A DNA stretch of 7,960 bases. Source: a virus. Its lineage: Monodnaviria; Loebvirae; Hofneiviricota; Faserviricetes; Tubulavirales; Inoviridae. Shown in pieces: positions 6,001 to 7,960 of the stretch (its first letter is position 1; every line of letters starts with the position of its first letter). The stretch lies in the IMG/VR virus record IMGVR_UViG_2529292905_000001; one strand, given 5' to 3'. Made by a program: the position numbers.

Positions 6001-7960
6001 TTATAAGTTACTCCTTCCCTCCCCTCCATTGACCAGACGCGAACATATACAGGTATCTGGACTAACTTACCGATAAAATTATTTGCCTGATTCATTACAC
6101 CGGCATTAACAAGAGCCTGAGATACACGAATAATAATCTGGTCTTGCTTAGTGCCGCCAAAACCATCAGGAATCTCTAAGCCAACACCAATTTCATTATA
6201 GTATCCCTGACCATTGACCTTATTACGCTGGCGAGCACCAAGCATTTTACCTTTTACAAAAAGACCATAATTAGACATATCACTCTCCTTTAATGCCAGT
6301 TACTGGCATGTGAAATACGGTTATAATCGAAAATTAAACCTTTCTCATAAACCCATGATGGAATTTTGGCTGGTTTGGCTTCAAGAGTACGAACCAACGG
6401 AACAACGTTATTAGAATCCGGTGACTCACAATAAAAGTTAATATCTATTCCGAAAGAAAGTAATTCTTTACGGTGTCGGTAGAATGTAGGTTTCGGTAGC
6501 ATCTCTTTCATGTTCGCGCCCTGCTTCCACAATAAATATGTAGACTGTATTTTTCTTGGGAGATTAATTATTTTTTCATCAGTTAATATAGTATTTTGAT
6601 TCATTTCTATTCTCCCTACATAGTCAGAGAATAATTTATTGGGCGTCTCAATATTCCAGCTATTACCAAGCGTAAGATTCAAATCAATTAATTCAGTTGT
6701 TCTTAATGTTAATTCAATGCGTAATTTATCTTTTGACCAGTCCAGTAAACCAGCTTTAACGAATTCGTCTGCCATCTGGTGCCCTTTTTTGCCAGATGTA
6801 TGCTCATCATATTTTGAATAAAATTTCAGGCTCCAACGACGGGAGTTTTTCCCTAAGTAAACAGTGCCACCTTTACCACAGGCGCGACCGTGGCGAGTTT
6901 TAGCTTTAAATTCTGCGGCATATAACCATGCGCGGACATTTTCTAATGTTGACAATGAATACATGTAATTGATATCGATGCGCGAGATCTTAAATTGCCC
7001 TTCCATGACCTGCCGATAGGATGGTAGATCATGAGGAATATGCAGTAATGCCAATATTCTGGCGTAAGCTGTTAACACCAACCCTTGCAAATCGTCGGAA
7101 CCGATAACAGAGTGACCTTGCAAAAACTTTGATGGATTACCGTCAATGTAGAGATGTGTTGCCCGACCTTCACCATCAGATCCAACAGACCTTACTTTCA
7201 TTGTGGACTCATGCGAACCGCGAACGGTCAACCGTTTTACTGTTTCCCACTCCACTGCACCGTCAGCATCGACGCTGACGACACTACCAGCCGGTAACGG
7301 TCGGTGTGTGCAAGGCAGGATTCCGGTAAACCAGTCGATCATAAGTAGTCACACCCATCAAAATATGTGTCAATAGTCATTTGTGAGCAGATTGAATGGT
7401 CACAATGTAATATGCTCAGATCTGACAGTTAATACATTTGCAATGTTTAAATTGTCAGAAATGAGCATCAAATCTAACTATTGAAAAACCACTGTTAAGA
7501 TGGAGCCAAGTAGATGGGCAACAATGAGCATGAAGTTATGGCGGACAAACAGAGAGCAGAACGTATCAAAAAGGTAATTCTGGAACACTCGACTTATGAA
7601 GAACTGGCCGAGAAGACTGGCATTAGCGTGAGTACGCTGGTCAGAATAGCGTCCGGCAAAACTGAACCTAAATTCAGTGACATCATTCAGATAGCTAAAA
7701 TTACGGGTGCAGACTTAAACACCTTAGCTTATGGCTATGCTCTTGATGTTAAAGAAGAAGCTACCGAGCGGAAGCTAATCACTTCTGCGGATGGATATAC
7801 TGATGAAGAAACCACTAACGCACATAATTTCATCGTGTGGAACATCAGGACACTGGAAAAACAAGATATTCTGGCACTCGCAAGGCAGGTTTCTGCCTTA
7901 AGTTCATACACTTACAGTACTAAAATGTTTATGAAAAAAGCGGTATCTGGAGAAGAGTAA

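Follow-up and report, generated by a model that had tools for sequence, protein, structure and literature searches.

The replication initiator encoded in a 7,960-nt inoviral DNA record (IMGVR_UViG_2529292905_000001; this whole stretch is referred to below as the window) is very probably an enzyme of the Phage_CRI/G2P family that has a TBP-like fold and a catalytic constellation in common with Rep_trans initiators, and sequence comparison points to the segment flagged in the initial annotation as its active-site core and to a cognate origin past the end of the window. The analysis pinpoints Tyr-175 and, by comparison, the predicted nick site driving replication of a prophage that has been associated with the fitness of plague bacilli and invasive E. 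coli K1, and thereby names concrete targets for mutagenesis. It leaves the understanding of rolling-circle initiators unchanged, as the family, the phage and the likeness of the motif to Rep_trans have already been published; in practical terms, it corrects the expected position of the origin, which would lie beyond the repressor gene and not in the spacer that separates this gene from gene II.

A CUS-1/YpfPhi-type prophage at the dif site

The window covers most of a filamentous prophage of the CUS-1/YpfPhi type, which is integrated at the dif site of E. coli (Table 1). An ORF scan of the window placed all of the largest ORFs on the minus strand, with the exception of the helix-turn-helix gene, which also gave a weak match to NCBIfam phage_RstR. 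The gene V-type single-stranded-DNA-binding protein acts downstream of the initiator. The pIII-like ORF had no match in Pfam; its longest form comprises 570 aa, and the product listed in RefSeq has 520 aa, with its start at window-equivalent 5224. The ORF of the initiator is labeled 'phage/plasmid replication protein, II/X family' in RefSeq.

At least 80% of the window length was matched in 98 complete E. coli genomes. Strain CUWW06 contains a full-length match with 99.6% identity, and its prophage, which adjoins the ydeP-ydeR fimbrial genes, is a tandem repeat with a period of 9566 bp. The repeat unit begins inside dif, at window-equivalent 204, so that the second junction has only the first 14 nt of dif. 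A megablast search of the window against phage records returned no match, and I2-2 was reached only by tblastn. It should be noted that several related enterobacterial inovirus contigs, some of them near-identical, are titled Aerococcus, Candidatus Nanosynbacter, Lactococcus, Clostridium or Streptomyces (L008, L010, L061, L065 and L066); given these unlikely hosts, they are probably mis-binned or contaminant contigs.

Table 1. Coordinates of the features of the prophage, its initiator and the adjoining control region within the window.
Feature	Position	Strand	Evidence
E. coli dif site, perfect 28 nt, at prophage end	190–217	-	exact match to GGTGCGCATAATGTATATTATGTTAAAT
Secretin	1089–2333		Pfam
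Zot/pI-type assembly ATPase	2333–3358		Pfam
DUF2523 protein			Pfam
pIII-like ORF	3662–5374	-	
Inovirus coat protein B	5439–5672		Pfam
Single-stranded-DNA-binding protein (gene V type)	5961–6278	-	Pfam Putative_G5P, E=1.2e-52
Gene II-type rolling-circle initiator, 350 aa, homologue of YpfPhi YPO2274	6290–7342	-	Pfam, TIGR01629
Predicted gene X within the initiator frame, 104 aa from Met-247	6290–6604	-	M247 conservation, I2-2 alignment
Glu-210 codon, predicted metal ligand, RepDE E214 counterpart	6713–6715	-	inferred
Catalytic motif T160-V-Y162-L-G164-x8-K173-F-Y175-S-K177-Y-D-E180, strand-turn-strand-helix	6803–6865	-	conservation, RepC alignment, AF2 model
Tyr-175 codon, predicted nucleophile for 5'-phosphotyrosine link	6818–6820	-	conservation, M13/IKe/I2-2/RepC alignment
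Asp-123 codon, predicted metal ligand, RepDE D142 counterpart	6974–6976	-	invariant; hhalign
Asp-3 codon, predicted metal ligand, RepDE D46 counterpart	7334–7336	-	inferred from first-strand position
Divergent regulatory spacer between gene II and repressor gene	7343–7513	.	
HTH (RstR-like) repressor gene	7514–7960	+	Pfam HTH_3, E=1.6e-9; counterpart of YPO2273 (RstR homologue)

Family assignment of the initiator

The Pfam search that the initial annotation had proposed matched the initiator strongly with Phage_CRI (PF05144; residues 1–231, E=1.2e-73, 248 bits against a cut-off of 21.7) and G2P_X_C (PF05155; residues 253–336, E=3.6e-34, 117.7 bits against a cut-off of 25), and not with an unrelated family. 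Together with 259.6 bits for NCBIfam TIGR01629 rep_II_X (cut-off 29), this bears out its assignment as a rolling-circle initiator of the Phage_CRI/gene II family. Rep_trans (PF02486) aligned with residues 148–216 at 16.7 bits (E=0.0056), which is under the gathering cut-off of 29.6; the designation as 'Rep_trans-type' stands with respect to motif and fold and fails with respect to Pfam membership.

The initiator is 100% identical to the replication protein of the Y. pestis phage YpfPhi (locus L005/L006), and the closest phage in GenBank is I2-2, whose gene II product shows 57.8% identity across 98% of the initiator (tblastn). The gene II proteins of M13, IKe and I2-2 carry the same pair of Pfam domains, PF05144 and PF05155, while pT181 RepC is composed of PF22477 and PF02486. 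No cross-matches were found with Pfam, neither of RepC with Phage_CRI nor of the M13, IKe and I2-2 proteins with Rep_trans. Furthermore, the initiator had no match to PF22477, i.e., it does not have the RepD-like N-terminal domain, and its C-terminus corresponds to G2P_X_C and not to the origin-specificity domain of the pT181 type.

Catalytic motif and nicking tyrosine

Reverse-complement translation of 6803–6862 yielded VYLGKNSRRWSLKFYSKYDE, which corresponds to residues 161–180 of the 350-aa minus-strand ORF, as had been annotated. The 21-aa string quoted in that annotation (TVYLGK...YDE) represents residues 160–180, encoded by 6803–6865, and its text and coordinates are therefore one residue apart. 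The pattern T.Y.G.{8}[RK].Y.K..E was found in 1 of 20,000 shuffles of the initiator protein; the motif match is not due to chance.

Conservation was assessed in an alignment of 72 homologues with 46–88% identity. S167, Y175, K177 and E180 were invariant in all 72, and T160, Y162, G164, R169, W170 and K173 were conserved in at least 90%, while Y178 was not conserved across this set. Y175 aligned with Y197 of M13 gpII, Y198 of IKe and Y175 of I2-2. A passage of PMC5405960, citing work from 1999, gives Tyr-197 of M13 gpII as the residue that is covalently joined to the nicked DNA, and in the initiator of phage Pf, the equivalent tyrosine, within an SIYNK module, is essential, with a Y-to-F exchange abolishing phage production. 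The claim that the flagged segment holds the nicking tyrosine is thus upheld by the invariance of Y175 and its alignment with Tyr-197 of M13, and Tyr-175 is the predicted catalytic nucleophile that would nick the DNA and become covalently linked to it.

Candidates for the three metal ligands were found outside this segment. D3, conserved in at least 90% of the homologues, occupies the same position on the first strand as D9 of RepSTK1 and D46 of RepDE. D123 is invariant in the 72 homologues, and hhalign paired RID123 of the initiator with RLD142 of RepC. E210 is likewise invariant in the 72 homologues, and its context in the initiator, R-I-E-L-x-L-R, resembles R-V-E-I-x-L-K of RepC.

Relationship to Rep_trans and predicted fold

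Carr et al. (2016) described the active site of RepDE as consisting of Y191, R189, K193, E196, T176, Y178 and G180, with D46, D142 and E214 as metal ligands. They further noted that the most conserved Phage_Cri residues form Rep_trans-like motifs and that, were the fold similar, a comparable catalytic center would result. After confirming the RepDE numbering on the pT181 RepC sequence from the plasmid record, we found that the initiator motif matches T176-x-Y178-x-G180-x8-R189-x-Y191-x-K193-xx-E196 of RepC without gaps. The residues D3, D123, T160, Y162, G164, K173, Y175, K177, E180 and E210 are the counterparts of RepDE D46, D142, T176, Y178, G180, R189, Y191, K193, E196 and E214, respectively, and all ten are invariant or nearly so among the 72 homologues. 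An hhalign comparison of the family profile with the single RepC sequence arrived at the same register, pairing Y175 with Y191, at a probability of 1.8% and an E-value of 0.028. A homologue search from pT181 RepC gave at least 81% identity among the matches listed, which is too uniform for a diverse Rep_trans profile.

The AF2 model of the initiator (pLDDT 86.5) has strands at residues 160–163 and 170–176, followed by a helix at 177–182, an order that equals that of Rep_trans strands 9 and 10 and the next helix. With Foldseek, the model matched A0A345MNV4 in BFVD (E=1.8e-6), an inovirus protein that carries PF02486 according to PMC13107129. Foldseek against the PDB returned no significant match for the model, and PDB sequences searched with phmmer and with profiles yielded chance matches only. 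Judged by sequence, the connection to Rep_trans is weak. Taken from the model, the catalytic domain would adopt a crescent-shaped, TBP-like fold of the Rep_trans class. The suggestion of Carr et al. is borne out for this initiator, and no new idea is added to it here.

A nested gene X

A nested gene X that would give rise to a C-terminal fragment of the initiator is predicted. Its start codon, M247 (6602–6604), is invariant in the 72 homologues and coincides in the alignment with the start annotated for gene X of I2-2 (I2-2 3829, corresponding to residue 247), and a GGGAG Shine-Dalgarno-like sequence is located just upstream of Met-247 (reverse complement of 6610–6620). The G2P_X_C domain falls within the predicted product. 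The RefSeq annotation contains no gene X at the initiator locus.

A candidate origin past the end of the window

The initial annotation placed the plus-strand origin probably in the spacer upstream of gene II (Table 1), but a gene II-type origin element, i.e., a TAATA-loop hairpin with a downstream palindrome, was found on neither strand of this spacer nor anywhere else in the window. The sole non-coding similarity between I2-2 and the prophage (90% over 41 nt) connects I2-2 2666–2706 with 13979–14018 of the prophage locus L001, which correspond to window-equivalent 7979–8018, the window itself ending at 7960. Read from the genome with 99.6% identity, the core origin is predicted at window-equivalent 7968–8017 on the minus strand, 8–57 nt past the window end. 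This places it downstream of the repressor gene; gene II starts about 660 nt further on, separated from the origin by the repressor gene and the control region.

On the phage plus strand, the candidate origin reads AACGTGCAGT GTTGGTAAT ACTGCACGTT TGTCTCATTCCTGAGAC, or, with the predicted nick, AACGTGCAGT-GTTGGT^AAT-ACTGCACGTT followed by TGTCTCATTCCTGAGAC. This sequence can be aligned in register with the core origin of M13 (GAGTCCAC GTTCTTT^AATA GTGGACTC TTGTTCCAAACTGGAACA), whose nick lies between T5780 and A5781 according to a passage of PMC5405960, as well as with the viral-strand origin annotated in IKe. The element occurs a single time in L001, on the correct strand, and is found at the same place in the E. 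coli, Y. pestis and Klebsiella copies; its DNA folds into two hairpins with a z-score of -4.9.

We also searched 72 loci for a composite motif, in which a TAATA loop is closed by a perfect stem of 6 bp or more and a small inverted repeat is present downstream, and obtained 61 on the Rep strand and 2 on the other strand, compared to 1.85 in shuffles. In 22 loci, the motif precedes the Rep start by 37–63 nt, and in 15 by 343–884 nt; in the lineage of the window, the distance is 651–660 nt. In a second test, in which an anchor without the stem requirement was used (69 distinct instances and 75 controls), 62 of the 69 anchored instances and 0 of the 75 controls had a perfect stem of 6 bp or more. 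As 28 different inner stem sequences were found, the stem displays extensive covariation.

In Klebsiella spallanzanii, a rearranged, defective prophage (L007 5640–5760) has gene IV (window ~2200) fused to the origin at ...CCCGT|AATACTGCAC.... The deletion junction falls exactly at GGT^AATA, the predicted nick, as would be expected if rolling-circle replication had terminated aberrantly there; owing to 3 nt of microhomology at the junction, the nick can be located no more precisely than to ~2 nt. Origin alignments, the conserved motif and this junction together point to a nick at GGT^AATA, predicted between window-equivalents 8002 and 8001 on the minus strand and presumably made by Y175. The same Klebsiella lineage also encodes Rep-secretin fusion proteins of 458–602 aa (P0009, P0010, P0030, P0031 and P0034).

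Two further observations concern the surroundings of the origin. Five related loci (L016, L019, L030, L032 and L035) contain two or three different origin-like hairpins per contig, and the one at position 1217 of L016 has the exact M13/IKe stem (GAGTCCAC...GTGGACTC); the extra hairpins may represent satellite or co-resident elements, or termination sites. Moreover, the E. coli prophage and YpfPhi are homologous only up to L001 14040 (window-equivalent 8040), ~25 nt upstream of the origin hairpin. Therefore, the variable cargo (orf1/orf1a versus YPO2271/2272) abuts the origin, a boundary that fits module exchange near the nick site.

Alternative interpretations

A plus-strand origin within the spacer, with its large palindrome as the nick hairpin, is very unlikely. 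The spacer does contain a 27-nt imperfect palindrome (7412–7438/7442–7468; 81% complementary, 3-nt spacer) and folds with a z-score of -3.9, and in the 22 distant relatives mentioned above, the origin is indeed close to the gene II start. Yet the family-type motif is absent from the window on both strands and lies 651–660 nt upstream in the window's own lineage, on which grounds the palindrome was rejected as the origin; the TTAATAC element of the spacer is on the wrong strand. The literature assigns this region to the control of transcription: the YpfPhi review describes a presumed role of the region in transcription initiation and reports binding of RovA to the promoter region of YPO2274. 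The spacer is a divergent promoter/operator region and not the plus-strand origin, and its palindrome is likely an operator of the HTH repressor, with a related direct repeat resembling a half-site at 7365–7389. A promoter scan of 7250–7600 gave one site, which is no more than expected by chance, and a LexA-box reading of the palindrome was rejected by eye only.

Regarding the enzyme itself, true membership in Rep_trans, alongside pT181 RepC and CTXphi RstA and with dependence on UvrD and HU and a complex origin, appears unlikely. The correspondence of the motif and the similarity of the fold are real, and the layout is CTXphi-like, with a divergent RstR-like repressor, an origin beyond the repressor gene and tandem integration at dif. 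Against this stand the Rep_trans score below the gathering cut-off next to strong Phage_CRI and G2P_X_C matches, the missing RepD-like N-terminal domain, the absence of RepC/gpII cross-matches in Pfam and an origin of the simple Ff type. The published classification also keeps two groups of filamentous-phage initiators with different host factors apart: PF02486 (CTXphi RstA, VGJphi and Pf), which depends on UvrD and HU, and PF05144 with PF05155 (Ff, IKe and TLCphi), which needs the Rep helicase and not HU. It is hardly conceivable that another tyrosine of the motif (Y162 or Y178) serves as the nucleophile or that the enzyme is an HUH endonuclease. While Y162 is highly conserved, its position is occupied by Thr in M13 and IKe, whose covalent tyrosine is the equivalent of Y175, and its counterpart in RepDE (Y178) plays a supporting role; Y178 of the initiator is disfavored by its lack of conservation. 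The abstract of one published paper loosely calls filamentous-phage initiators HUH endonucleases, but no H-x-H is present in the 350-aa sequence and the fold is TBP-like and not RRM-like; the initiator is not an HUH enzyme. The preferred reading thus remains a Phage_CRI/G2P enzyme with Tyr-175 as its nucleophile and an origin past the window.

Proposed mechanism

By analogy with its family, the initiator would bind the double-stranded replicative form, or the tandem prophage, at the core origin. Tyr-175 would be part of a beta-strand and flanked by K173 and K177, E180 would belong to the next helix, and D3, D123 and E210 would hold a metal ion. The tyrosine would cut the phage plus strand (the minus strand of the window) in the hairpin loop and become linked to the 5' phosphate, and the freed 3'-OH would prime leading-strand synthesis together with a host helicase, which may be Rep without a need for HU, as in Ff, IKe and TLCphi. 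After one round, the regenerated origin would be cut and the displaced strand resealed into a circle. Synthesis is expected to run leftwards through the window towards dif, so that a single copy could not yield a full circle; on a tandem prophage, replication would start at one origin and end at the next. For related enzymes, it is established that the equivalent tyrosine acts through a covalent link (Ff) and that the active site depends on metal (RepDE/RepSTK1). Furthermore, according to the YpfPhi review, phage production is lost when the replication gene YPO2274 is disrupted; as YPO2274 is identical to the initiator, this supports its function.

Comparison with known systems

The closest known systems are YpfPhi, with YPO2274 as the identical protein in Y. 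pestis, and CUS-1 of E. coli K1, a close relative of YpfPhi. Gene order, integration at dif and the tandem arrangement agree; in contrast to YpfPhi, the copy in the window resides in an E. coli chromosome, and the two hypothetical genes beyond the origin are unlike those of YpfPhi. The YpfPhi review describes neither catalytic residues nor the origin. Gene II of I2-2 (Lineavirus I22) has the same Pfam pair, Y175 and a gene X start at M247, and its origin core is the one similar to that of the prophage. However, this origin is located in the intergenic region between gene IV and gene II without a repressor gene in between, and I2-2 is not an integrating phage.

The gpII proteins of Ff (M13/f1/fd) and IKe contain the same Pfam domains, with Tyr-197/198 aligned to Y175, as well as a nested gene X, and their origin, like that of the prophage, consists of a T^AATA-loop hairpin followed by TTGT and a small palindrome. 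They differ in their low overall sequence similarity to the initiator and in several insertions (410–421 aa compared to 350 aa), and the Ff protein has neither the T-x-Y-x-G half of the motif (TVTWN instead) nor the basic residue two positions before the tyrosine. With Rep_trans (pT181 RepC/RepD and RepSTK1; CTXphi RstA and Pf4 PA0727), the initiator has in common the catalytic constellation and its spacing, the TBP-like crescent fold and the chemistry proposed here, i.e., a tyrosine nucleophile and a metal held by three carboxylates. In contrast, it scores below the Pfam threshold, carries G2P_X_C in place of the RepD-like N-terminal and C-terminal DNA-binding domains, and its predicted helicase and HU requirements differ.

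Tentatively, we propose that the I2-2/YpfPhi branch combines the full Rep_trans constellation, the origin signature of the family and a displaced origin, features that possibly have not been described together before. As this branch would have kept the complete constellation, which Ff gpII would have partly lost, it may connect PF05144 with PF02486 at the level of sequence. The origin signature would be a single compact one, comprising a covarying hairpin, a (G)TAATA loop, TTGT and a small palindrome. In the dif-integrating lineage, insertion of the repressor module might have moved the origin ~660 nt away from gene II, so that, as in CTXphi, only tandem prophages would yield full-length circles.
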